This document shows, piece after piece, positions 5,703 to 24,763 of a DNA stretch of 64,000 nt. A program made the position numbers and the translations under genes. The DNA lies in the NCBI GenBank assembly GCA_002706065.1, contig PAJM01000017.1:12722-76721 (forward strand), in the 5' to 3' direction. The notes beneath the pieces were generated by a model. The model ran no database searches. It worked only from the letters and a program-made list of their open reading frames with translations, and was not told the origin of the DNA. Each line of letters starts with the position of its first letter. Position 1 is the first letter of the stretch. This DNA is from Methanobacteriota archaeon (GTDB taxonomy: Archaea; Thermoplasmatota; Poseidoniia; Poseidoniales; Poseidoniaceae).

Positions 5703-6152
5703 TTATGCGTGCCACGATGCCCAACTTTTCGGAGTTTCGCGTACATGCATAGCCACGAGTCGTAAGCGATTGCCGTATGCAGTTCGGATATGTGGTTCAA
5801 CCTGTTCAAAAGCCCATTTAGCCAGGTTTTCTGCGGTTGGAATGAACGGTACAATTACGGTACGATGTTCAGCAGAAAGTCCGGAAAGTACGCTTCTAGC
5901 TTCTTCATCACCTTCGTATACAACGAACGCATGATCAACAACGTCGTGGATATGGACTGTTAGAATCGAACTTACATCGCTAAAATCCATCAACATGCCT
6001 TGTTCACTTACGCCTTCTGTTTCGACAATGTCTCCTTCAATTTCAGCTTCAAATCGATATCGATGACCGTGAAAGTGTCTGCATTTGCTTTTGTGATTTG
6101 GCACTCTATGTCCCGTATCAGTCTCAACATATCGGCGTATTTTTGTAGTCAT
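5703..6152 (-). CDS. queD: 6-carboxy-5,6,7,8-tetrahydropterin synthase (QueD/PTPS family)
   Basis: CxxxHGH-type motif KSKCRHFHGHRYRFE and a PTPS-fold C-terminus; last gene of the preQ0 operon, overlapping the msrB stop by 4 nt. Confidence 0.85.
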   Translation of the reverse strand: MTTKIRRYVETDTGHRVPNHKSKCRHFHGHRYRFEAEIEGDIVETEGVSEQGMLMDFSDVSSILTVHIHDVVDHAFVVYEGDEEARSVLSGLSAEHRTVIVPFIPTAENLAKWAFEQVEPHIRTAYGNRLRLVAMHVRETPKSWASWHA

Positions 6153-6532
6153 TCGTTCACCTCAAATCTCATTGCTGCACTGTTGATGCAATAACGTTCT
6201 CCACCAAACTTTCGTGGTCCATCATCGAAAACGTGGCCAAGATGCGCATCACAACATCCACAGCGAACTTCAACGCGAGTCATTCCATGCGATGTGTCGA
6301 TTATTCTCTTGATGTTGGCATCATGATGTTCTGTGTGAAATGCTGGCCAACCGCAACCAGAGTCAAATTTCATTTGATTCGTGAAAAGTTTGGTATCACA
6401 TACGATGCAAAAGTAGTCGCCTTTTCGATACTCTTTGTTCAGTGCACCAGTGAATGGTCGTTCAGTACCATTTTGTTGTGTGACGTAGTACGATATTTCG
6501 GATAGTGATGCGATGCGTTCATCAAAATTCAT
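6149..6532 (-). CDS. msrB: Peptide-methionine (R)-S-oxide reductase MsrB
   Basis: CIVCDT...GCGWPAF...RVEVRCGCCDAHLGHVFDDGP is the canonical MsrB Zn site plus catalytic region; embedded between queC and queD with 4-nt overlaps. Confidence 0.9.
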   Translation of the reverse strand: MNFDERIASLSEISYYVTQQNGTERPFTGALNKEYRKGDYFCIVCDTKLFTNQMKFDSGCGWPAFHTEHHDANIKRIIDTSHGMTRVEVRCGCCDAHLGHVFDDGPRKFGGERYCINSAAMRFEVNE

Positions 6533-7317
6533 ATGTTAACCTCCTGCTTGTGATTACGTTCAACGACTAAGGCGTTTTCAAGGACTGTTTTCCATTCGCC
6601 TTGGTATTCAATTGGATCTTGTCGGCCAATGGAGTGAAAAGCGAGAATACGCTCAATATCCGATCCGCTCTTACCAGAACTCCTACCGTCCTTATCAGGA
6701 TTATAGGACGTAATTGTATTGGAAAGAACTTCATCAAAATCCAAGTCCAAGAGTTGGGTTGACTCAAGGGCATCCAAGAGAATTGAGGTTTTGTCGCCAT
6801 TTAGGTACGGCAAATCGAAGCGAACCTTGTCACTCTCCCAATTCCCAATTTCAAAGGCTGATTGAAGAGCATGATAGAATTCCGGCCGACAATCTGGATA
6901 AATGGCATGATCGCCACTGTGAACTCCGAGAGCAAGGACGAGTTCATGCCCTGTCTTTTGAGCCTCAGAAAGGGCAAAGCCATACAATATGGATGCAAAG
7001 ATTGCGTTTCGGTTTGGGACTACAGTTTGTTTCATTTGAGCTTCTTCATAATGGCCAAGTGGAATATCCTTGTCGTCGGATGTAAGAGCTGAATCGAAAA
7101 GAGACATCGCAGGAGATAGATCAACAATATGATGTTCAACACTGAATCCCTTTGAGAGACAGAGTGCCACCGTAGATTTTGCCTTCTCGATTTCAATTGC
7201 ATGCTTTTGTCCATAGTTGTATGAAATGCATACAGCACGATACTCACGGGCTAAATAGTGTATCAAGAGACATGTGGAATCCATGCCTCCACTCAATGCC
7301 ATGACAACTGTTTTCAT
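6529..7317 (-). CDS. queC: 7-cyano-7-deazaguanine synthase QueC (variant lacking the C-terminal Zn-binding cysteines)
   Basis: PP-loop SGGMDST and conserved NRNAIFASILYGFA, HSGDHAIYPDCRPEF. The expected C-terminal Cys-rich Zn motif is not visible; the corresponding stretch reads TITSYNPDKDGRSSGKSGSD with no Cys. Start taken at M42 of the ORF-track frame, adjacent to the queE stop. Confidence 0.85.
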   Translation of the reverse strand: MKTVVMALSGGMDSTCLLIHYLAREYRAVCISYNYGQKHAIEIEKAKSTVALCLSKGFSVEHHIVDLSPAMSLFDSALTSDDKDIPLGHYEEAQMKQTVVPNRNAIFASILYGFALSEAQKTGHELVLALGVHSGDHAIYPDCRPEFYHALQSAFEIGNWESDKVRFDLPYLNGDKTSILLDALESTQLLDLDFDEVLSNTITSYNPDKDGRSSGKSGSDIERILAFHSIGRQDPIEYQGEWKTVLENALVVERNHKQEVNI

Positions 7318-7964
7318 AGAATTCCCATCCATTTGTGCGTTTGCAATGATAATCGCCAGCCTGCATGTTCTTTCACAATTTGTTCTGCTTCCTGAAACAT
7401 GACACCATTCTCTTCGATGGTCGCTGTATCGATGTAACAAGGTTGGAGAAAGTGGTGCTCAAATCCTGATTTGAGATCACCATACATCGACAATTCTTGA
7501 CCACAATACACAATCTTCAGTTCATTTCCCATGCGTTGGCGAACAACGGAGTTGGGATAGACTTGATCTTTTGGCGATATACAGATCCAATCGATGAGAC
7601 CTTGTGGTATTTCTATCGTGCCATTGCTTTCGATTGAAAGGTTGAATCCGCGTCGCTTTAACAATCGATGCAATGGCCATAAGTTGTGGAGCATGGGTTC
7701 ACCTCCAGTGAAGATGACACGTTTGCAATCGTATTGCATGATTTCACCAAGGATCTCTATAGCATTCATTTGTTCATGTGTATTGAAGTCAGTATCGCAC
7801 CACGAGCATCGCAGATTGCACGTTCCAAAACGTACAAACACGTGGGGAATCCCAGCGTGATACCCTTCACCTTGCACTGAATGGAAGATTTCAACGACCG
7901 GATACTCGGTAGCCAAATCCGTTGGGTCATCACCAACCGCATCTCCAGCACGTTCGCAATCCAT
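7314..7964 (-). CDS. queE: 7-carboxy-7-deazaguanine synthase QueE (radical SAM)
   Basis: FVRFGTCNLRCSWCDT radical-SAM cluster motif typical of QueE; tightly coupled to queC. Confidence 0.9.
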   Translation of the reverse strand: MDCERAGDAVGDDPTDLATEYPVVEIFHSVQGEGYHAGIPHVFVRFGTCNLRCSWCDTDFNTHEQMNAIEILGEIMQYDCKRVIFTGGEPMLHNLWPLHRLLKRRGFNLSIESNGTIEIPQGLIDWICISPKDQVYPNSVVRQRMGNELKIVYCGQELSMYGDLKSGFEHHFLQPCYIDTATIEENGVMFQEAEQIVKEHAGWRLSLQTHKWMGIL

Positions 7965-7970
7965 TTGCGA

Positions 7971-8537
7971 TCAACTCGAGTTTTCAATGAGTTGCATCAG
8001 TTCGTTCCTTGCTTCTTGTTTCTCAAAGAAAACTCCACGCATTGCACTGGTTGTCATGATTGCATTTTGCTTGCGAACGCCACGACACCGCATACAACCG
8101 TGTGCTGCTTGGATAATCACGGCAGCACCAAGAGGGTTGAGATGCTCCACCAAATCACTGGCAACATCATTGGTAATCCGTTCCTGATTCTGCAGTCGAT
8201 GTGCATGATGATCGACGATACGAGCAAGTTTTGAAATCCCTACGATCCTATCGACAGGAATGTACGCAACGTGTGCTTTACCACTGAACGGTTGCAGATG
8301 ATGCTCGCATGTCGAATGGAATTCAATGTTGCTTAACAACACAATACCATCGTATCCTTCCGCATTGAATGTTGAGTCAAGAATGGTTTTGGAATCGGTA
8401 GAATACCCAGAAAAAATCTCCCCCCAAGAATCGATCACACGCTGAGGTGTGTCTTTCAGTCCCTCTCGATCAGGATTCGATTCTAAAAAATTCAAGAGCG
8501 TGTACACCGCCTTTTTTGCCTCATCTCTCGTAACCAT
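7971..8537 (-). CDS. folE: GTP cyclohydrolase I (FolE type I)
   Basis: FHSTCEHHLQPFSGKAHVAYIP, HGCMRCRGV. Start taken at M31 (MVTRDEAKKAV) of the ORF-track frame 7971..8627, giving ~188 aa. Heads the que operon. Confidence 0.85.
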   Translation of the reverse strand: MVTRDEAKKAVYTLLNFLESNPDREGLKDTPQRVIDSWGEIFSGYSTDSKTILDSTFNAEGYDGIVLLSNIEFHSTCEHHLQPFSGKAHVAYIPVDRIVGISKLARIVDHHAHRLQNQERITNDVASDLVEHLNPLGAAVIIQAAHGCMRCRGVRKQNAIMTTSAMRGVFFEKQEARNELMQLIENSS

Positions 8538-8726
8538 ATTAATCGCCCCCAAGTCGACCGTGTCGCATATCAATCGTGTCGAGTTGATCCAACAATTTGC
8601 GGCAAGCAGAGCGTATTGCATCTGCAACGCTGATGAATTTCTTGTCGTCCCCTACATGCTGTTTTAAGTCAACGAGAAGCTCGTTCGGCATGTCTAAACT
8701 AATTTTGGGCATAGTCTGCCCTTACT

Positions 8727-11570: not shown

Positions 11571-13145
11571 CTAAAACCCACTGGGAGCAGAGTAAGTGCC
11601 AAAAATATCCTTCATAGCCGACATAATTTCACCTAATGTCGCATTATGTTGAATTGCATTGATAACGATTGGGAATAGGTTCGAACCGTCTTCAGCAGCG
11701 CTCCGAATCTGTTGCAGAATTACCTCGACTTTTGATGAATCCCGATTCTTCCGTAATCCATCCAAACGTTGATGTTGGTGTTGTGCAACCTCTGGATTCA
11801 ACTTCATTGGTTTGATTTGTAAGTACTCATCCATCGTACCGTGATTGACACCAACGATACGACGAGAACCACCTTCAATCTCATTGAAGTAGCGATATGC
11901 AGTTGTGTGAATCTCTTGTTGTTGATATCCTTGTTCAATCGCTTTCAACGCCCCACCCATTGAATCGATCTTTTCAATTTCAGATTTTGATTTGTTGTAG
12001 ATTTCATCAGTGAGTGATTCAATGTGAAAGGACCCTGCAAAAGGATCTACTACATCTGCAACACCAGACTCCTCAGCAATAATTTGTTGAGTTCGTAGGG
12101 CGATTGTAGCACTTTCTTCTGTAGGTAAGCCCAATGCCTCATCGTAACTGTTTGTGTGCAAGCTCTGTGTTCCGCCACAAACTGCCGCAAGGGCTTGGAT
12201 TGTGACTCTGCTGATGTTGTTCAGAGGTTGTTGAGCAGTCAGTGAAACTCCAGCAACTTGAGTATGAAATCGTAATTGCGTGGACCGTGGATGAGATGGA
12301 GCATAGCGTTGAACCATGAGGTCATGCCATAATCGCCGTGCAGCACGGAACTTTGATATTTCTTCCAGGAAATCGTTGTGGCAATTAAAGAAAAAGGAGA
12401 GTCTTGGGGCAAATGTATCAACTGCCAAACCTTTTTCACAGGCTGAATCAACATACGCAAGTGCATTGGATAACGTGAATGCAAGTTCCTGGACAGCAGT
12501 CGAACCAGCTTCTCTGATATGATAGCCTGAAATTGAGATGGTATTCCATTTCGGGATATTTGTGGAACAATACTCAAAGATATCCGTGATCAATCGCATT
12601 GAATGGTTTGGAGGGAACACATAGGTACCTCGTGCAATGTACTCTTTCAGAATGTCATTTTGAATCGTCCCTGATATCTTTTCTCTGCTTACACCTTGTT
12701 CTTCTGCAACAACACAATACATCGCAAGAAGGACCATGGCTGGCGCATTGATGGTCATTGAGGTTGACACCTTGTCGAGCGGTATATCTGAAAACAAATC
12801 ACGCATATCTTGCAGACATGAAATAGAGACTCCGACCTTGCCAACTTCACCCTCGCTAAGTGGATCATCAGCATCCAAGCCAAGTTGGGTGGGTAGGTCA
12901 AACGCTACCGATAGTCCCTTTTGGCCTCGATCAAGCAGCAAGCGAAAACGTTCATTGGTTTCTTGTGCAGACGAGAAACCTGCATATTGTCGCATCGTCC
13001 ATAATCTGGAGCGATACATCTTCTCGTGAATCCCTCGTGTGTATGGCGCAGAACCCGGCGTTTCAACGGAATCATCTGGCACGTGATAAGCCGGAATTGG
13101 TAAACCACCCAGGGTCTCCCAGTTGGATTTTCTTAACTCGACCAT
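11571..13145 (-). CDS. Methylmalonyl-CoA mutase, large (catalytic) subunit; the separate B12-binding subunit is not in this window
   Basis: 524 aa with extensive MCM-family similarity (SAPYTRGIHEKMYRSRLWTMRQYAGF, TISISGYHIREAGS, FFFNCHNDFLEEISKFRAARRLW). Confidence 0.9.
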   Translation of the reverse strand: MVELRKSNWETLGGLPIPAYHVPDDSVETPGSAPYTRGIHEKMYRSRLWTMRQYAGFSSAQETNERFRLLLDRGQKGLSVAFDLPTQLGLDADDPLSEGEVGKVGVSISCLQDMRDLFSDIPLDKVSTSMTINAPAMVLLAMYCVVAEEQGVSREKISGTIQNDILKEYIARGTYVFPPNHSMRLITDIFEYCSTNIPKWNTISISGYHIREAGSTAVQELAFTLSNALAYVDSACEKGLAVDTFAPRLSFFFNCHNDFLEEISKFRAARRLWHDLMVQRYAPSHPRSTQLRFHTQVAGVSLTAQQPLNNISRVTIQALAAVCGGTQSLHTNSYDEALGLPTEESATIALRTQQIIAEESGVADVVDPFAGSFHIESLTDEIYNKSKSEIEKIDSMGGALKAIEQGYQQQEIHTTAYRYFNEIEGGSRRIVGVNHGTMDEYLQIKPMKLNPEVAQHQHQRLDGLRKNRDSSKVEVILQQIRSAAEDGSNLFPIVINAIQHNATLGEIMSAMKDIFGTYSAPSGF

Positions 13146-18184: not shown

Positions 18185-20212
18185 TTATTCCTCAGGGATG
18201 AACATTTCATCTTGGTATCCGACAATTTCATCTCCAGTTTCATCTTCCTCAATGACGACAGTTCCTTCATCATCATCAAACTCAATGATGGTTCCATAAT
18301 AATCTTCGCCGTCAATCTCAAGTCCGACATACGAACCAATATCAAATTCTTCTTCCTCGGGTTCTTCCCCGTCATCAGCATCGGTTTCTTCTGAATCCTC
18401 ATCTGCTTCTTCATCGCTGATTTCCTCGCTCGTTGATTCGTCTTCATTCTCGTCCATGTCCGACTTTTCTTCGTCTTCAATCGCTTCCTGTACTTCGGCT
18501 CGATCATCATCAACATCTCGCATTGCCTTGAGACGTGCTCGCCATCCCGGTGCCAAGATGAGATGCGTGTACAGGCTCCAAATAAGACCTAATCCAGATA
18601 TGATCATGAGGATGATAGCATCAAGATAAAATCCTCCTGGCATAGATGATGCTTTTCCAGAGAACGGTGTTAGAGAATTCTTACATTCACCTTCTTGATA
18701 TTCAGGAACACAAGGATATGCGTCCCCTTCAGAAATGACTTTACCATCAATCATGATACTGTCATCTGGTGCATCGGGTTTGGCATCGAATTCGACCATT
18801 CCTCCAGTCCCATCGACGAATGGGATGAGCGCATTGACAAGTAAACCAACGATTAGGATAGCGAAGGACGTATGAATAAGAGGCCAATACACATCGTGCC
18901 ATTTCTTTGACATAAAGCGCGTTTGCATTTCTGTTGGGAATGTTTTGACGGTCTCTGCTTCCTCATCTTCAATGGTTGAAATTTCATCCTCATGACGTTC
19001 GATGGCATTGACAAATTCGATCATGTCAATGTTACCGTCGCCATCTGTATCCATCGAACTGAGTAGGGACTCTGCTTCTGATTCGGTTAGCCCGTGTGGC
19101 AATATCACATTCAATTTATGAACCAGTTCTTCAGAAGTTAGGAGTCGATCACCATCGTCATCGAGATCGCCGAACGCGTTCACAAGCGATTTATCTTCTT
19201 CTTCAATTACATCGAGGAGTTGTTCAATAATTTCTGCAGATGAACGTTGAGTTTCGAATGATTCTGTTTGCACATCCTCTTCTTCATCCTCTTCTCCAGG
19301 GTCATCTGATTCAGTTTCGATAATATCTCTTGAGTCATCTTCTTCGGAATCTGTTTCGAAAATTTGTTCTTCCGCCTCTTCTTCATCGAGAGCATCGTCT
19401 TCGTGAATCTCTTCTGTATCATCTGAATCTTCCTCAGGCTCGGAAACGTCCTCATCTAGTTCTTCTTCAGAGACTGGTTCGCTCTCATCCGATTCTTCCT
19501 CAGCTGACTCAGCGGTGTCTCCAACATCGGTTGCATCCAAGTTAGTGCGTGCATTCCATGCTTCTGCAGCCGTCTGCAACTCTTCCTTTTTGAGATATTG
19601 ATTACCATCCGTATTGAAATCTCCAGCAAAAGCAATGAATTCTTCTTTGTCGGATTCATCGATTTCAAACGATTGCATAATTTTCGACAGAACATTTTCG
19701 TTGAATTGCAGAGTTTCCTGTTCATCACCATCATCACTTGGCCCGGAATCATCCTGGAGCTCTTCTCCACCAATGATGGATTGCAGTTCCACCAAATCAA
19801 TTAGGCTATCACCATCTTGATCAATTGCTTCGACCAAACGGTCGACTTGTGATGGAGGAAGATCCGCAAGATTGAGTGAAAGAAGGCCTTCTTTGAGTTC
19901 GCCCGAATCGATCATGTTGTCATTATTGGTATCGAAGCGGCCAAACAACGTCTTGACATCCATCTTATTCATTGCCATCCAACTACGTAAGATATCAACA
20001 ACATCATCAGCGACGAATACCACACCACAATCAGGACACTTCGTGGAGTCAAGTGGTACCAGTGAGTTGCATGCACCACACTCTCCCAAGGCTTCATCCG
20101 AAACACCTGAAAATGAAATTCCACATTCTGGACATTCGCTTGTGTTGATCGGTACGATAGCCCGGCAAGAGCCACATTCGGCCATGGGAGTTTCTTCATT
20201 TTCATCCGACAT
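18185..20212 (-). CDS. Hyperacidic membrane protein: two N-terminal zinc ribbons, five EF-hand Ca-binding loops, two TM helices flanking a Cys-containing loop, poly-acidic C-terminal tail
   Basis: Zinc ribbons CGSCRA..CPECG and CGACNS..CPDCG. EF-hand loops DTNNDNMIDSGELKEG, DQDGDSLIDLVELQS, DFNTDGNQYLKKEELQT, DLDDDGDRLLTSEELVH, DTDGDGNIDMIEFVNA. TM helices LIHTSFAILIVGLLVNALIPFV and FYLDAIILMIISGLGLIWSLY. Long Asp/Glu runs. Start taken at M19 of the ORF-track frame 18185..20266. Confidence 0.75.
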   Translation of the reverse strand: MSDENEETPMAECGSCRAIVPINTSECPECGISFSGVSDEALGECGACNSLVPLDSTKCPDCGVVFVADDVVDILRSWMAMNKMDVKTLFGRFDTNNDNMIDSGELKEGLLSLNLADLPPSQVDRLVEAIDQDGDSLIDLVELQSIIGGEELQDDSGPSDDGDEQETLQFNENVLSKIMQSFEIDESDKEEFIAFAGDFNTDGNQYLKKEELQTAAEAWNARTNLDATDVGDTAESAEEESDESEPVSEEELDEDVSEPEEDSDDTEEIHEDDALDEEEAEEQIFETDSEEDDSRDIIETESDDPGEEDEEEDVQTESFETQRSSAEIIEQLLDVIEEEDKSLVNAFGDLDDDGDRLLTSEELVHKLNVILPHGLTESEAESLLSSMDTDGDGNIDMIEFVNAIERHEDEISTIEDEEAETVKTFPTEMQTRFMSKKWHDVYWPLIHTSFAILIVGLLVNALIPFVDGTGGMVEFDAKPDAPDDSIMIDGKVISEGDAYPCVPEYQEGECKNSLTPFSGKASSMPGGFYLDAIILMIISGLGLIWSLYTHLILAPGWRARLKAMRDVDDDRAEVQEAIEDEEKSDMDENEDESTSEEISDEEADEDSEETDADDGEEPEEEEFDIGSYVGLEIDGEDYYGTIIEFDDDEGTVVIEEDETGDEIVGYQDEMFIPEE

Positions 20213-20322
20213 TGTTTTTCCCCAACACTCACCAAGACATGAGCGAATATAATGATTGATGGTCATTTACACGATGAAACCTATTTATCTTCGTCCACAA
20301 GGACCATCTGGAGGGACTTTGT

Positions 20323-21177
20323 ATGACGGGCCGTATTCATTCCATCCAAGCGGAGGACACTGAATCTTTCATTGAGGCTTTTGATCAAATTGAGAACCAA
20401 GGCGAGGGCCGTCAAATTTTCATTTCTCGTTACCCTCAATCCAGATTGATTGATTTGCTTGACATCTCAAAAATGCAGTGCTATTGGATGACAACTGTCC
20501 AGGATACAGGCGTTCTTGAACCGAGTCTTGAGAAAATAAATCATTTCATAGAATCTTTGCTTCGCTCTGAATCAGGAACCATCTATCTCGAAGGTGCTGA
20601 ATGGCTCTTCTCATTGCACGGTTTTGATGCCGTTCAATCGATGATTCGCACATTAGCGGAAAAAGTCTCAATAAGTCAGTGGTCGATCTTCATTTCAATT
20701 TCAAGAGACAGTCTGGACATGCGTGAACGTTCTCGTTTTTATCGCGAAGCACCACTCTTTGAGGTCAATACGATTCAGCACAATGTCATCTCCGATGATG
20801 GGGATTCGGGCAACATCGACACGATGCAATCGGCATCGGTTGAGATGGATTTATCGGATGATGGTTCTCCAAAGTTGTTCCTCCTTACTCGATTACCCCG
20901 TTCGGGATTCAGCAAGAGGATTCTCCAACGACGTATCCTTCAATGGAGGAGGATGGGATTGGATACTTCGGACATCGAAGCGGTCTTGTATTTGCAAGAT
21001 GTTGATGAAATATATTCAAAATATCGAGGTGTCGAAGAACAAGTCCGGCGTGCGACGGAATTAGAACAACACGTACTCGAACATGTATCTGATAGCCATG
21101 AACGTACAATCGCATTGTTCCGTATACGTCAATTAACAGGTCTTGATGAACTTGAAAGAATCTACTTCTCAGATTGA
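20323..21177 (+). CDS. DUF835-like domain protein (archaeal family of unknown function) with a C-terminal extension
   Basis: ISRYPQS...YWMT...LEPSLEKINHFIESLL...TIYLEGAEWLFSLHGFDAV...ISISRDSLDMRERSRFYREA, which I recognise from memory (not checked) as the DUF835 consensus; divergent from the EF-hand gene. Confidence 0.55.
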   Translation: MTGRIHSIQAEDTESFIEAFDQIENQGEGRQIFISRYPQSRLIDLLDISKMQCYWMTTVQDTGVLEPSLEKINHFIESLLRSESGTIYLEGAEWLFSLHGFDAVQSMIRTLAEKVSISQWSIFISISRDSLDMRERSRFYREAPLFEVNTIQHNVISDDGDSGNIDTMQSASVEMDLSDDGSPKLFLLTRLPRSGFSKRILQRRILQWRRMGLDTSDIEAVLYLQDVDEIYSKYRGVEEQVRRATELEQHVLEHVSDSHERTIALFRIRQLTGLDELERIYFSD

Positions 21178-22728
21178 TTTGCGAAGCGGATTCTTCAACG
21201 TTGATTGAATGATTGACAACCAACTCGATTTTGTTAACTCGTCAGCTATTGAAATAATTTCATCGCTAGTACTGCGGTCAGCTCGACCTTCGAGAACGAC
21301 GTTATTCATGCATCGTATCATGGATTGAACACATGTTGAGGAAGGAGTTTCAATGATGGTGATGGCTCTGTGTGCTACGAAGGCTTCACAGGCAATCACC
21401 TCGGAGCAGCGTTCAATCGCTTGCAATAAATTCCAACTTGCTGTTGCACCCATACTCACATGATCTTCCTGGCCAGCAGAGGTTGTCGTTGAGAATGCAG
21501 TTCTTGGTGTTGAATGGCCATGCAACTCACCAAGTGCCGCAGCGGCTGCATACTGAACGATCATGAGGCCTGACTCCAATCCTGCATTATCTGCCAAAAA
21601 CGGTTTGATGGCAAGCCGATTTGGATCGAGCATTTGATCGATACGACGTTCACTCATTGAAGATAATTCAAACAATGCTAAACTCATTGCGTCGGATACG
21701 AATCCAAGTACCTCTGCATGAAAATTACCTTGGGACACGACTTCATGCGGACCGGGATCCACCGGGTCAGGGAAAATCAATGGATTATCTGTCGACGAAT
21801 TCAATTCAATTGTGACCGTTTGAATCAATTTGTGAAGCGATTCTTGTACTGGCCCGTGAACCTGCGGTATGCATCGAAACGAATACGGATCTTGGATTCG
21901 ATTGCATTCATGATGGTTTGATAGAATTGTCGAATCATCGAGAATTGCCCGAATCCTTTCAGCGACAAAGAGTTGGCCTAAATGTGGGCGGGTTCGATGA
22001 ATTCGGTCATCATACGGTGTTAACGTGGATTCAGTTGCATCGAGCGACATGGCTGCAACAATGTCTGCATAGGTCAACAATTGACGAAGTTGTTCAACAG
22101 CAATCGCTAACATTCCTGTTATGAGGCTGGTGCCATTGATGAGAGATAATCCATCTTTTGCGCGTAGAGTAAGCGGTGCGAGTTCACAACGCTGTATTGC
22201 ATCATAGGCCGATATGACTTCACCGTTGTACTCGACATTCCCTTCACCGACAAGAGCGCAGGCAAGATGAGAGAGTGGTGCTAAATCCCCACTAGCGCCA
22301 AGACTACCGATACGTGGAATAATCGGATGAATTGAATGATTGATGAACTGTTCGAGTTGCGAAATCACATCCGGATGACAACCCGAATGACCTTTGACAA
22401 GTGAATTAAGTCGCACGCACATCATTGCACGAACAATTTCTGTTGAGAGGTTGGGCCCTAAACCAGTTGCATGAGAGCGTACAAGATTAAGTTGCAATTG
22501 TTCAACATCATCTTGACTCACCCGTGTTTGAACCAGCGAGCCAAAACCAGTATTGATCCCATAAACCGTTTCATCTCCCTCGACGATTCGATCGACAACA
22601 CTTCGGGCCAATTTTACTTTGAGCATGGCTTCTGGAGCAACCTGGACTGTTGCTCGACCGTATGCCACATCATGAACATCAAGCGTGTTGACAGTTGTCC
22701 CATCCAGTGTCACAATCCGCTTATTCAT
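21169..22728 (-). CDS. hutH: Histidine ammonia-lyase (MIO-dependent)
   Basis: GSLGASGDLAPLSHLA contains the Ala-Ser-Gly MIO triad. ORF track frame 21169..22740; likely start at M5. Confidence 0.9.
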   Translation of the reverse strand: MNKRIVTLDGTTVNTLDVHDVAYGRATVQVAPEAMLKVKLARSVVDRIVEGDETVYGINTGFGSLVQTRVSQDDVEQLQLNLVRSHATGLGPNLSTEIVRAMMCVRLNSLVKGHSGCHPDVISQLEQFINHSIHPIIPRIGSLGASGDLAPLSHLACALVGEGNVEYNGEVISAYDAIQRCELAPLTLRAKDGLSLINGTSLITGMLAIAVEQLRQLLTYADIVAAMSLDATESTLTPYDDRIHRTRPHLGQLFVAERIRAILDDSTILSNHHECNRIQDPYSFRCIPQVHGPVQESLHKLIQTVTIELNSSTDNPLIFPDPVDPGPHEVVSQGNFHAEVLGFVSDAMSLALFELSSMSERRIDQMLDPNRLAIKPFLADNAGLESGLMIVQYAAAAALGELHGHSTPRTAFSTTTSAGQEDHVSMGATASWNLLQAIERCSEVIACEAFVAHRAITIIETPSSTCVQSMIRCMNNVVLEGRADRSTSDEIISIADELTKSSWLSIIQSTLKNPLRKSI

Positions 22729-24763
22729 GTACGCCACCATCCAATAACGTGTCGAGTATGGAATCCTCTACCAATTGTGGTATTGTGACTTGAAGTTGAG
22801 GATTAATGTCCATGGCTCTCTGAATGGACGTAATAGCGCCATGATTTCTAGCCCATGCTCGACGTGCTACACCGTTGGAAACATCCCAGTGGAGCATGGA
22901 TTCAAGGCGCCTCATCGAATCCTCTGTTCCATCGATAAGGAGTCCAAAGCCGCCATTGGATACTTCTCCCCAACCGACACCTCCACCATTATGGAGGCTG
23001 ACCCAAGTAGCTCCACGCATAGCGTCGCCTACGAAATTTTGTACTGACATATCAGCAGTCCACTGTGATCCATCCCCTATGTTGGCTGTTTCACGATAAG
23101 GTGAATCAGTTCCACTCACATCATGATGATCCCGTCCAAGGACAATCGGTGCTGAGATTCGACCATCGGCTACAGCTTGATTCATAGCAGCAGCGATTCG
23201 TGTACGTCCTTGTTCATCAGCGTAAAGAATTCGAGCCTTCGATCCAACGACCAGGGCATGTTGTTCTGCCTCTTGGATCCATTTGAGATTGTCCTGTATT
23301 TGCTGACGAATATCCTGATCGCTCTCTTCGTCGAGCATTTCTGCAAGCACTTGTTCAGCAATTTTGTCGGATTCTGCTAAATCTGAATCCAAACCAGATG
23401 AGCACACCCAACGGAACGGACCAAATCCACGGTCAAAACACAACGGGCCCATGATGTCTTCAACGTATGAGGGGTATTTGTAGGTGCCATCGGGTTGGAA
23501 AATGTCCGCTCCTGCACGTCCAGATTCCAGCAAGAATGCATTGCCATAATCCCAAAAGAACATGCCTTTTGAGACCAATGTATTGATTGCATCTACATGC
23601 CTGCAGAGGGATTGTTGCACCAATGTTCGAAATGTATCAGGTTGTTCATGCATCAGGTTCTGAGCTTCATCGAAGTCCAAACCAGCGGGGAAATAGCCCC
23701 CTTGGAATGGATTGTGAAGAGATGTTTGATCGCTTCCAAGATGGACAAATACATCACGCTCAACAATTCGTTCCCAGAGGTCAACAATGTTGCCTACGTA
23801 TCCGATTGAGGTTCCTTTCTTATGTTCTGATGCTGAAATCATGCTGTCGATGGCCTCATCGACGTCGTATGCTAATTGCTCAACCCAACCTTGTCGGTAC
23901 CGTTTTTCAGCAGCAATTGGATTAGATTCAGCAACAATACATGCTGCACCAGCGATGACTGCGGCTTTGGCTTGAGCACCCGACATTCCGCCTAGTCCTG
24001 ATGTGATGAATCGAAGACCACTCAAATCACTGTTTGAAGCAACACCAAATTTCATCCGGGCAGCATTCATCAACGTAATTGTCGTTCCATGAACAATCCC
24101 CTGAGGACCGATGTACATGTACGAACCTGCTGTCATTTGACCATACTGTGTAACCCCCATGGCATTCAGTCGTTCGTAATTCTCTGTTGAGGAATAATTT
24201 GGTATCATCATGCCGTTGGTGACAACCACCCGCGGAGCATCTTTCGACGAAGGGAAGAGCCCAAGTGGATGGCCTGAATACATCACAAGTGTTTGCTCGT
24301 CAGTCATTTCGGAGAGGTACTTCATGACAAGACGGTATTGTGCCCAATTTTGAAACACGGCACCATTTCCACCATAGGTGATTAATTCGTTAGGAAATTG
24401 AGCTACCCGCGGGTCAAGATTGTTGTCGATCATTAGCATAATTGCCGCAGCATGAGTTGAAACTGCGGAATATTCGTGTATTGGCCGTGCGCGAATGGTT
24501 TGCTGTGGGCGGAATCTATGCATGTAAATTCTACCTAATTCACGTAATTCCTTGAGGAATTCTTTACTCAATACTTCATGGTGATTGGGATCGAAATAGC
24601 GCAGTGCATTTTGCAATGCTAGGCGTTCTTCAATTACAGAGAGCACTCGTTTACGTACTGGTGCGTGATCGACTTCGGCATCAAGACCAGGGTGTGTCGG
24701 CAAGTCATCGGGCAAACCAAATGAGAAATCGCTGACCATTTTGCTCCCCCTACTTCGTCCCAA
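22721..24763 (-). CDS. hutU: Urocanate hydratase (long, eukaryote-like ~680 aa form)
   Basis: Extensive urocanase similarity (MIDNNLDPRVAQFPNELITYGGNG, NAD-binding region GLGGMSGAQAKAAV, HGGGVGWGEV); overlaps the hutH start. Confidence 0.9.
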   Translation of the reverse strand: MGRSRGSKMVSDFSFGLPDDLPTHPGLDAEVDHAPVRKRVLSVIEERLALQNALRYFDPNHHEVLSKEFLKELRELGRIYMHRFRPQQTIRARPIHEYSAVSTHAAAIMLMIDNNLDPRVAQFPNELITYGGNGAVFQNWAQYRLVMKYLSEMTDEQTLVMYSGHPLGLFPSSKDAPRVVVTNGMMIPNYSSTENYERLNAMGVTQYGQMTAGSYMYIGPQGIVHGTTITLMNAARMKFGVASNSDLSGLRFITSGLGGMSGAQAKAAVIAGAACIVAESNPIAAEKRYRQGWVEQLAYDVDEAIDSMISASEHKKGTSIGYVGNIVDLWERIVERDVFVHLGSDQTSLHNPFQGGYFPAGLDFDEAQNLMHEQPDTFRTLVQQSLCRHVDAINTLVSKGMFFWDYGNAFLLESGRAGADIFQPDGTYKYPSYVEDIMGPLCFDRGFGPFRWVCSSGLDSDLAESDKIAEQVLAEMLDEESDQDIRQQIQDNLKWIQEAEQHALVVGSKARILYADEQGRTRIAAAMNQAVADGRISAPIVLGRDHHDVSGTDSPYRETANIGDGSQWTADMSVQNFVGDAMRGATWVSLHNGGGVGWGEVSNGGFGLLIDGTEDSMRRLESMLHWDVSNGVARRAWARNHGAITSIQRAMDINPQLQVTIPQLVEDSILDTLLDGGVHE

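Follow-up and report, generated by a model that had tools for sequence, protein, structure and literature searches.

Can a QueC, the ATP-dependent enzyme leading from CDG through ADG to preQ0, do without the zinc site by which its family is known? In descriptions of QueC, including the 2026 survey of PF06508, the Cys4 zinc site is one of two hallmarks of the enzyme and zinc is called necessary, and the site is kept even in the distant defence paralogue QatC. The window, that is, the whole stretch of 64,000 nucleotides analysed here, comes from a Marine Group II archaeon and contains a queC gene whose product has none of the four ligand cysteines. It is discussed below whether this product is still a QueC, what occupies the ligand positions and how the protein may do without the site.

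The ORF starts with MKTVVMALSGGMDS, stops with TGA and has an intact frame; an in-frame ATG lies five codons upstream (MDGNSMKTVV) and is the start for some homologues. QueC (PF06508) is the sole Pfam domain of the 262-aa protein and spans residues 4-229 (E 1.7e-38, 132.7 bits against a gathering cut-off of 22). Structure prediction, which the first-pass annotation had proposed, gave an AF2 model (pLDDT 84.5, pTM 0.85; pLDDT 76-96 over residues 201-250) matched best in Foldseek by the QueC crystal structures 2pg3 and 3bl5 (probability 1.00, target-normalised TM 0.75-0.79). These are likewise the best sequence matches among solved structures, and the modelled fold is the QueC fold, a Rossmann domain with a helical C-terminal domain. 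With the NCBIfam equivalog model TIGR00364 the protein scores 130.2 bits, below the cut-off of 150.3, in an alignment that ends at model position 190 of 201. Every Cys-less relative tested also falls under this cut-off (120-134 bits), with an alignment stopping just short of the motif, and Cys-bearing relatives score 133-165 bits. The gene and its catalytic motifs are the following:

complement(6529..7317), minus strand: queC, 262 aa, Cys-less variant (PF06508 match, translated ORF)
7276..7293, minus strand: PP-loop S9-G-G-M-D-S14 (SGGxDS, ATP pyrophosphate binding), invariant in 37 homologues
7192..7215, minus strand: Y35-G-Q-K-H-A-I-E42 (YxQxHxxE substrate/ATP motif), invariant in alignments
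7006..7020, minus strand: V100-P-N-R-N104 (VPxRN motif), invariant in alignments
6889..6900, minus strand: Y140-P-D-C143 (YPDC motif, from alignments); C143 is the last Cys of the protein

Invariance of the motifs was judged on 37 Poseidoniales homologues and on a 12-sequence alignment including characterised phage QueCs; among the 37, Met12 of the PP-loop and Met95 do not vary either. The tyrosine of the C-terminal loop, the equivalent of E. coli Y189, is also kept (Y205). SGGxDS, YxQxHxxE, VPxRN, YPDC and the loop Tyr are essential or conserved signatures of QueC; in the E. coli enzyme YxQxHxxE is essential and the R99A mutant (VPxRN) is inactive (PMC13329287). Judged by alignment, all canonical QueC catalytic residues are present in the Cys-less protein (SGGMDS, YGQKHAIE, VPNRN, YPDC and Y205), and the first-pass annotation was right to call the catalytic N-terminal two-thirds canonical. 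The protein is of the 'GVHxGDHxIYPDC' subtype, unlike the 'GVCETDFSGYPDC' subtype, and has in common with canonical QueC the fold, the four motifs, the loop Tyr, the ERxxAF...DPxxY end and the linkage to folE, queD and queE. It differs from canonical QueC in its score under the equivalog cut-off, in an additional helix, about 20 aa long, at the C terminus and in the zinc motif, which is C(x)8CxxCxxC in the canonical enzyme and S(x)9SxxSxxD here:

6649..6717, minus strand: former Zn-knuckle loop T201-R223 (TITSYNPDKDGRSSGKSGSDIER), from column-by-column alignment with Cys-bearing relatives
6706-6708, minus strand: S204, ligand position 1, codon TCC
6676-6678, minus strand: S214, ligand position 2, codon TCT
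6667-6669, minus strand: S217, ligand position 3, codon AGC
6658-6660, minus strand: D220, ligand position 4, codon GAT
6538..6594, minus strand: extra C-terminal amphipathic helix, residues 242-260, W242xxVLxxAL (DSSP on the AF2 model)

Within the peptide TITSYNPDKDGRSSGKSGSD (residues 201-220, nt 6658-6717), S204, S214, S217 and D220 fall exactly on the C(x)9CxxCxxC of the closest Cys-bearing relatives, which read TCYNPDxxGRSCGKCGSCxER at the loop, and in HMMER alignments with the two solved QueCs S204 lies opposite the first Zn Cys ('TITSYN' against 'TLTCYN'). The only Cys residues are C16, C30, C53 and C143, none of them after YPDC; C143 of the universal YPDC is the only invariant one, and C16 and C53 are not conserved. 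Relocation of the Zn motif elsewhere in the protein was considered and rejected, as these Cys are spread over the Rossmann domain and there is no new Cys/His cluster; in addition, the alignment against Cys-bearing members contains no Cys or His column specific to the Cys-less group. The absence of the four Zn-ligand Cys claimed in the first-pass annotation is thus confirmed, with S/S/S/D at the ligand columns, no Cys beyond residue 143 and a motif that was lost in place and not moved. The tail of about 45 aa which it described as Cys-free is so, but measures 42 aa after D220. For the most part that tail is how QueC usually ends (ERxxAF...DPxxY), with one helix added. In the AF2 model the loop has a pLDDT of 76-85, and DSSP assigns beta bridges to residues 202 and 213 and starts a helix at 218. 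The added helix, in which W242, L246 and A249 are invariant in 37 homologues, occurs in Cys-less and Cys-bearing members of the clade, the median tail of other QueCs being 7 aa, and is a hallmark of this clade.

The Ser/Asp substitutions are shared by the relatives. Position 1 is S, position 3 S or T and position 4 D in all of the 120 best 90%-identity clusters, 111 of which have exactly S-S-S-D, position 2 sometimes being N; of the 150 closest cluster representatives at 50% identity, 93 have CCCC. The S/S/S/D pattern occurs in about 66 archaeal species in GTDB (Poseidoniales, MGII/MGIII), and the Cys-less motif is present in 80 GTDB species. Across the 66 archaeal species both TCN and AGY codons are found at each Ser position, and both GAT and GAC at the Asp position. 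Because the Ser codons switch between TCN and AGY, the replacement residues are under purifying selection. The chance that the motif is a sequencing or assembly artefact or belongs to a decaying pseudogene, for which its unusual appearance speaks and nothing else, is practically nil: an independent contig carries a 99%-identical protein (P0001), the motif recurs in all the best clusters, the 80 GTDB species and 53 viral contigs, synonymous codons turn over while the amino acid stays, and the intact frame overlaps both neighbouring genes by 4 nt. Sequencing error and pseudogene are ruled out by this conservation, the independent contig and the codon turnover. The first-pass annotation had expected a naturally Zn-less or otherwise metal-binding QueC, and the alignments support it in that the Cys4 site is gone, a conserved, selected feature of a clade.

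The genes around queC are those of its pathway, together with a methionine sulfoxide reductase gene:

7971..8627, minus strand: folE, GTP cyclohydrolase IA (PF01227 E 7e-67; NF006825 above cut-off)
7314..7964, minus strand: queE, radical-SAM CDG synthase (Radical_SAM; TIGR04508 E 3e-40)
6149..6532, minus strand: msrB, methionine-R-sulfoxide reductase (PF01641 E 6e-48)
5703..6152, minus strand: queD, CPH4 synthase (PF01242 E 9e-26; TIGR03367 E 2.5e-22, at 79.1 bits under the cut-off of 89.25)

The operon, in the order folE-queE-queC-msrB-queD (5703-8627), is tightly coupled: queE and queC overlap by 4 nt, and msrB overlaps both queC and queD at an ATGA. Synteny shows it conserved in about 65 Poseidoniales species, with queE beside queC throughout, and msrB-queC fusions occur in many relatives (for example, P0067, P0095 and P0120). 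The ten largest ORFs of the window do not include an arcTGT; downstream, preQ0 would be used for tRNA archaeosine, as is general in Archaea. The other products of the operon keep their Zn ligands (FolE CEHH...GCM, QueD CxxxHGH as CRHFHGH, MsrB two CxxC pairs), so there is no evident general zinc-sparing strategy. Organism-wide avoidance of zinc was rejected on this ground.

We consider it probable that the protein is a working preQ0 synthase in which polar, helix-capping residues have taken the place of the structural Zn knuckle. It would catalyse the final step in a translationally coupled operon supplying preQ0 for tRNA archaeosine in this archaeon. Its Rossmann/PP-loop core is intact, the essential loop Tyr included. 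In the helical C-terminal domain, Ser204, Ser214, Ser217 and Asp220 have replaced the structural Cys4-Zn knuckle, and their side chains would keep the hairpin-plus-helix shape without metal: S/T217 and D220 may be the N-cap and N3 residues of helix 218-229, that is, a capping box, and S204 and S214 would lie near the hairpin beta-bridge residues 202 and 213. The extra C-terminal helix and other insertions of the clade, which are older than the Cys loss, may give the stability that zinc gives elsewhere. The capping-box and hydrogen-bond geometry is suggested by the DSSP string and the sequence; the S/S/S/D loop presumably holds no metal, to which AlphaFold is blind, and CDG-to-preQ0 activity is presumably retained. 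Zinc in QueC has been described as structural (PMC13376578). Against a working enzyme, however, zinc has been stated to be required for QueC function (PMC13329287), and QatC, a QueC homologue, is severely impaired when its four Cys are changed to Ala (PMC13639016). The TIGR00364 scores of the Cys-less sequences (120-134 against 150.3) also count against it.

That the loop still binds metal through other ligands is unlikely. In its archaeal form this explanation would place a hard cation (Mg2+, Ca2+ or Na+) on the Ser/Asp oxygens, and it can point to D220, invariant in the S-x-S/T-D type, and to the nearly invariant S204. Yet S/S/S/D is not a metal ligand set, because seven residues (S, N, H, D, E, P, I) occur at position 2 and either S or T at position 3, and no ligand set is constant, position 4 being S in the SDSS type; moreover, Ser hydroxyls are poor Zn ligands. 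In marine Planctomycetota, whose Cys-less QueC has S/H/T/D at the ligand positions, the metal would be a rebuilt Zn site of a Cys two residues before ligand 1 together with His at position 2 and Asp at position 4. This Cys and S, H, T and D occur together in 94 sequences of the combined homologue set, in the Planctomycetota branch, but the coupling of Cys and His is not strict (10 cases of I with H, 7 of C with S and 3 of C with N), and in the QueC of the window position -2 is I and position 2 is S, which leaves neither thiol nor imidazole there. A changed function, in which the enzyme stops at the amide (ADG) like QueC* or acts on another substrate like QatC and Cap9, is very unlikely. On several occasions the PF06508 scaffold has been turned to new functions (PMC13329287), QueC* is proposed to be an ADG synthase (PMC10516641), the equivalog score is under the cut-off and many clade members are viral. 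However, the canonical catalytic residues are all kept, whereas the QueC* of Campylobacter phage CP21 has YGSNH and VPFRN; in about 65 species folE, queE and queD share a housekeeping operon with the archaeal gene; PADLOC gives a weak generic QueC match (49 bits) and no QatC or Cap9 match; and the protein carries neither a GATase domain nor a partner-binding extension at either terminus.

Gat-QueC, QueC*, QatC and Cap9 share the PF06508 core and the PP-loop with the working preQ0 synthase proposed here, and differ from it in other respects. Gat-QueC, of the archaeosine synthase type, has an N-terminal class-II glutamine amidotransferase fusion, which is absent from the window protein. QatC and Cap9 are recognised by defence models and have extensions, altered motifs and qatABD or CBASS neighbours, whereas this QueC has canonical motifs and preQ0-gene neighbours. 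The QueC* of Campylobacter phages CP220 and CP21 (CP21 34% identical) keeps the four Cys with YGSNH and VPFRN, against YGQKH and VPNRN with no Cys at the ligand columns here. The derivatives compared (CP21 QueC* and QatC) keep Cys4 and have extra domains or altered motifs, the opposite of the pattern in the window.

Loss of a structural zinc site has a parallel in adenylate kinase. The lid of the E. coli enzyme carries His126, Ser129, Asp146 and Thr149, and so has residues of just the types that make up the S/H/T/D of Planctomycetota QueC. In adenylate kinase lids a structural Zn-Cys4 site is replaced by a hydrogen-bond network and activity is retained (PMC11526920); fold and enzyme are unrelated to QueC, and the likeness would be one of mechanism only. 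Zinc-independent paralogues such as FolE2 (GCYH-IB), the C-minus L31 and L36 and DksA2 are likewise versions of Zn proteins without the Cys ligands, FolE2 belongs to the same pathway as QueC, and Zur regulation extends to queC itself in Neisseria (PMC6103462). Zur-regulated paralogues, however, are second copies used under Zn starvation, whereas the Cys-less queC is the operon copy.

No description of a Cys-less QueC was found in the searched literature. A large, abundant Cys-less clade with catalytic residues and pathway context amounts to a natural experiment: should its members prove active, QueC can dispense with zinc, whose role is then a structural one only. In that case, the preQ0 supply of abundant planktonic archaea and of DNA-modifying marine phages would need one zinc site fewer, which would apply in zinc-poor surface water, and a metal-free, thiol-poor nitrile synthetase could serve biocatalysis. 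In addition, the NCBIfam equivalog model misses these QueCs.

Marine sequences with a Cys-less QueC number in the thousands and come from archaea, bacteria and viruses. In a Marinimicrobia MAG the Cys-less queC overlaps queD, and 53 of the 80 closest viral contigs in IMG/VR are Cys-less, with the gene beside folE, queD and queE. Phage contigs carry it in queC-queD-queE-folE with a terminase or near a weak TGT/DpdA-like neighbour. Among the cultured or characterised phage QueCs compared, that of Flavobacterium phage immuto (cultured, SDSS type) is the only Cys-less one, and those of Cellulophaga phiSM, Escherichia Seurat, Mycobacterium Rosebush and Campylobacter CP21 keep CCCC. It is possible, though doubtful, that the variant is an adaptive metal-independent or oxidation-proof isoform of marine phage or plankton origin, which horizontal transfer then carried into several surface-ocean lineages (Poseidoniales, Pirellulaceae, Marinimicrobia, Verrucomicrobiota, flavobacterial phages). 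If so, the last 7-deazaguanine step would be freed from zinc supply and thiol oxidation, and the recurrent insertion or fusion of msrB beside queC would reflect the same oxidative pressure.

In NJ trees computed with the ligand region left out, 34 of 36 Cys-less sequences fall in one clade with four CCCC sequences; bootstrap support is 22/100 for this mixed clade and 0/100 for monophyly of the Cys-less sequences alone. With such weak support, the trees appear compatible with single or multiple losses of the Cys. The closest Cys-bearing members of the clade (P0124, P0125, P0131, P0132 and the viral L099 and L101-L104) are 44-51% identical to the window QueC over residues 1-199 and share with it the x9 loop spacing, the insertions W160 and LDFD 192-195 and the C-terminal helix, but keep all four Cys. 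Because these members already have the marker residues of the Cys-less group and the C-terminal helix, the scaffold is older than the Cys loss. Several of the Cys-bearing members, with inteins or an HNH domain in them, are apparently viral.

The gene queC, for a predicted preQ0 synthase, comes third in a compact run of five genes of the window, all on the minus strand:

7971-8627, minus strand: folE, first of the five
7314-7964, minus strand: queE, second
6529-7317, minus strand: queC, third, 262 codons with a Pfam QueC match
6149-6532, minus strand: msrB, fourth, a methionine-R-sulfoxide reductase gene
5703-6152, minus strand: queD, fifth

Short basic ORFs upstream of this operon resemble, on reading their translations, what we take to be the archaeal ribosomal proteins L39e and L31e. 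From queE to queD each gene overlaps the next by 4 nt, the overlap of queC with msrB reading ATGA, and folE, queE, queC and queD constitute the complete pathway from GTP to preQ0 (PMC13329287, PMC5699537). The order folE-queE-queC-(msrB)-queD is retained in about 65 Poseidoniales species, msrB sitting between queC and queD in the preQ0 operon of this order; in-frame fusions of msrB to the 3' end of queC are found in many species, giving a protein with Pfam QueC followed by SelR (relatives P0067, P0095, P0096, P0104 and P0120). Five codons upstream of MKTVV lies another in-frame ATG (MDGNSMKTVV, window 7318-7332), which is the annotated start in the homologues P0008 and P0020, so the start of queC is uncertain by five residues; the gene overlaps the end of queE from either candidate start.

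Residues 4-229 of the product match Pfam QueC (E 1.7e-38), and its only sequence relatives of solved structure are 2pg3 and 3bl5, both QueC. Canonical QueC was defined in a 2026 family survey by SGGxDS, YxQxHxxE, VPxRN and YPDC together with a zinc motif which the survey describes as highly conserved, zinc being stated as required, and mutants in these motifs, as well as Y189A within the zinc loop, are inactive (PMC13329287). The first-pass annotation had called the catalytic part canonical, and indeed all the signature motifs are present (S9GGMDS14, Y35GQKHAIE42, V100PNRN104, Y140PDC143) as well as Y205, and SGGMDS, YGQKHAIE, VPNRN, YPDC and Y205 are invariant among the relatives. The PP-loop of this subtype carries Met (SGGMDS), whereas both solved QueCs have SGGQDS, and Met95 is invariant.

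The same annotation held that the four zinc-ligand cysteines are missing and that the C-terminal end is free of cysteine, and both statements proved correct. The cysteines are C16, C30, C53 and C143, the last within YPDC, with none C-terminal to it. In HMMER alignments S204 (TITSYN) faces the first zinc cysteine (TLTCYN) of 2pg3 and 3bl5. When 1.84 billion cluster representatives were searched and the best 150 aligned, the closest cysteine-bearing relatives showed TCYNPDxxGRSCGKCGSCxER opposite TSYNPDKDGRSSGKSGSDIER, so that S204, S214, S217 and D220 replace the ligands one for one; a curated alignment gave the same replacements. The peptide quoted in the annotation, TITSYNPDKDGRSSGKSGSD, corresponds to residues 201-220.

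Whether relatives share these substitutions had been named as a check, and they do: in a collection of 5.8 billion proteins, the Cys-less motif occurs in all of the 120 best clusters (63-99% identical), exactly as S-S-S-D in 111 of them; in the remaining nine the only differences are in adjacent residues, T in place of S at position 3, or N in place of S at position 2. The representative P0001, 99% identical, comes from an independent contig. In addition, scanning GTDB with a single genome per species gave 80 loci, of which 66 are archaeal, and the related loci are labelled as Poseidoniales, Poseidoniaceae, Thalassarchaeaceae, Marine Group II and Marine Group III MAGs obtained in ocean surveys. 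At each ligand-column serine of the archaeal loci, codons of the TCN as well as of the AGY family are in use, and the aspartate is encoded by both GAT and GAC; nucleotides have therefore turned over repeatedly while the amino acids were retained. Furthermore, the loop is among the best-conserved stretches in an alignment of 37 sequences, in which T201, T203, S204, Y205, P207, D208, G211, S213, G215, G218, D220 and E222 are invariant. The Cys-less motif is thus genuine and under selection.

The protein might instead have been a derivative of the QueC family, namely a GATase fusion, QatC or Cap9, or QueC*, but it is unlike these by domains, PADLOC and motifs: the Pfam search found no GATase domain, PADLOC gave no QatC or Cap9 match, and the proposed amide-forming QueC* of Campylobacter phage CP21 is its reverse, with altered YGSNH and VPFRN and four cysteines kept. 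An AlphaFold2 model (pLDDT 84.5, pTM 0.85; block means of 76-96 over residues 201-250) finds QueC 2pg3 and 3bl5, then Cap9, as best PDB matches. The protein is a member of PF06508 and is predicted to work like QueC. It lacks one of the two QueC hallmark motifs and scores below the cut-off of the NCBIfam equivalog, a cut-off that every Cys-less relative tested also fails, the alignment ending just short of the zinc motif.

The zinc of QueC has been described as structural (PMC13376578) and sits in a helical C-terminal domain closing the active site (PMC5699537). In the AlphaFold2 model the loop has β-bridge positions at residues 202 and 213, followed by a helix spanning 218-229. With the helix starting at 218, Ser or Thr 217 would take the N-cap and D220 the N3 position, a classical capping-box arrangement, and S204 and S214 would lie near both bridge residues of the hairpin; we infer from the model that capping and hairpin roles of this kind may hold the loop. 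Position 2 accepts S, N, H, D, E, P or I and position 3 S or T, while a second motif type (SDSS) has S at position 4, a variability that would fit hydrogen-bonding residues better than a conserved ligand set. The lid of Escherichia coli adenylate kinase relies on His, Ser, Asp and Thr, the residue set found in the ligand columns of Planctomycetota QueC. Adenylate kinase may serve as a precedent for QueC: among these enzymes the lid exists both in a Cys4-zinc form and in a hydrogen-bond-network form (PMC11526920).

Cys-less QueCs, 50-57% identical to the query, are also found in marine Planctomycetota (Pirellulaceae, Mariniblastus), a Verrucomicrobiota MAG and a Marinimicrobia MAG, with S/H/T/D, S/S/T/D, S/N/T/D or S/D/T/D at the ligand columns; at the Marinimicrobia locus queC overlaps queD. 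The Planctomycetota branch (loci L063-L080, representatives P0271-P0390) mostly reads NTCTSY...GRSHGxTGSD, that is, Ser/His/Thr/Asp, with a Cys two positions ahead of ligand 1, a combination present in 94 sequences of the combined set. This loop could be a metal site rebuilt from Cys, His and Asp, but the coupling of Cys and His is not strict, or it could be a hydrogen-bond network like that of adenylate kinase.

Among the 80 closest IMG/VR viral contigs, 53 carry a Cys-less QueC (SDSS in 24, SSSD in 11, other patterns in about 18), and most have folE, queE or queD close by, 30-50% identical to the archaeal genes. On one contig a (large) terminase gene adjoins queC-queD-queE-folE, and on another a weak TGT/DpdA-like ORF directly upstream ends at the queC start. 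Both carry a Cys-less queC next to queD, queE and folE:

L085, 6799-7989
L106, 4596-7516 and 8074-9555

These contigs suggest that uncultured marine phages modify their DNA with 7-deazaguanine. A cultured Baltic Sea phage, Flavobacterium phage vB_FspM_immuto, has an SDSS QueC, and CCCC is kept by phiSM, Seurat, Rosebush and CP21, the phage QueCs with studied products or their close relatives. Inteins (Intein_splicing, LAGLIDADG_3) split several of the close QueC relatives; in others a free LAGLIDADG_1 endonuclease lies within the zinc loop, or an HNH domain is present at the N-terminus (together P0123, P0125, P0141, P0144, P0243, P0263 and P0132), features typical of phage genes.

In a weakly supported neighbour-joining tree made with the ligand region excluded, 34 of 36 Cys-less sequences group together with four CCCC representatives in a single clade, and monophyly of Cys-less sequences alone appears in 0 of 100 bootstraps of this poorly resolved tree. 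Three otherwise canonical representatives (P0206, P0208 and P0251) have CCCD (CGxCGSD), and a marine group III locus (L047, CACAGG010000006.1, 6001-6753) keeps the first cysteine alone (C-S-S-D); these forms are possible evolutionary intermediates. Column-by-column comparison separates the Cys-less group from other QueCs by W160, Y171, D182, L192-D193-F194, G211 and S213, and reveals no new Cys/His cluster specific to it. Other QueCs finish about 7 residues past DPxxY. Because the separating residues and an extra C-terminal amphipathic helix (residues 242-260, WxxVLxxAL) are also present in Cys-bearing members of the clade, the simplest history would be that the scaffold gained stabilising elements first and that metal loss became possible afterwards.

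Every named owner of a Cys-less QueC is either a member of the marine plankton or a phage of such an organism, which invites the reading that zinc economy or oxidation resistance drove the loss; this adaptive reading has a low probability, and general zinc avoidance is not supported, since FolE, QueD and MsrB of the operon retain their own zinc ligands. Proteins are well known to lose structural zinc sites in evolution, so the surprise is limited; no published description of a Cys-less QueC was found in the literature searched. The significance of this form lies in how large and abundant the clade is, in its occurrence in phages and in its conflict with a stated QueC hallmark.

A locus labelled Phycisphaerae bacterium MED703 (L050, NZFX01000056.1) has the typical Poseidoniales folE-queE-queC/msrB-queD arrangement, with 61-83% identity and many ambiguous bases, and is probably a mis-binned archaeal contig. 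Elsewhere the window encodes an S15 peptidase, an OPT oligopeptide transporter and, unusually for an archaeon, a 693-aa protein (18185-20266, minus strand) with several calcium-binding EF-hand domains and a UPF0547 zinc-ribbon-like N-terminus. Histidine ammonia-lyase adjoins urocanase (21169-24763, minus strand; histidine degradation), and these genes together with the methylmalonyl-CoA mutase large subunit (11571-13145, minus strand) fit the life of Marine Group II as peptide-using heterotrophs.
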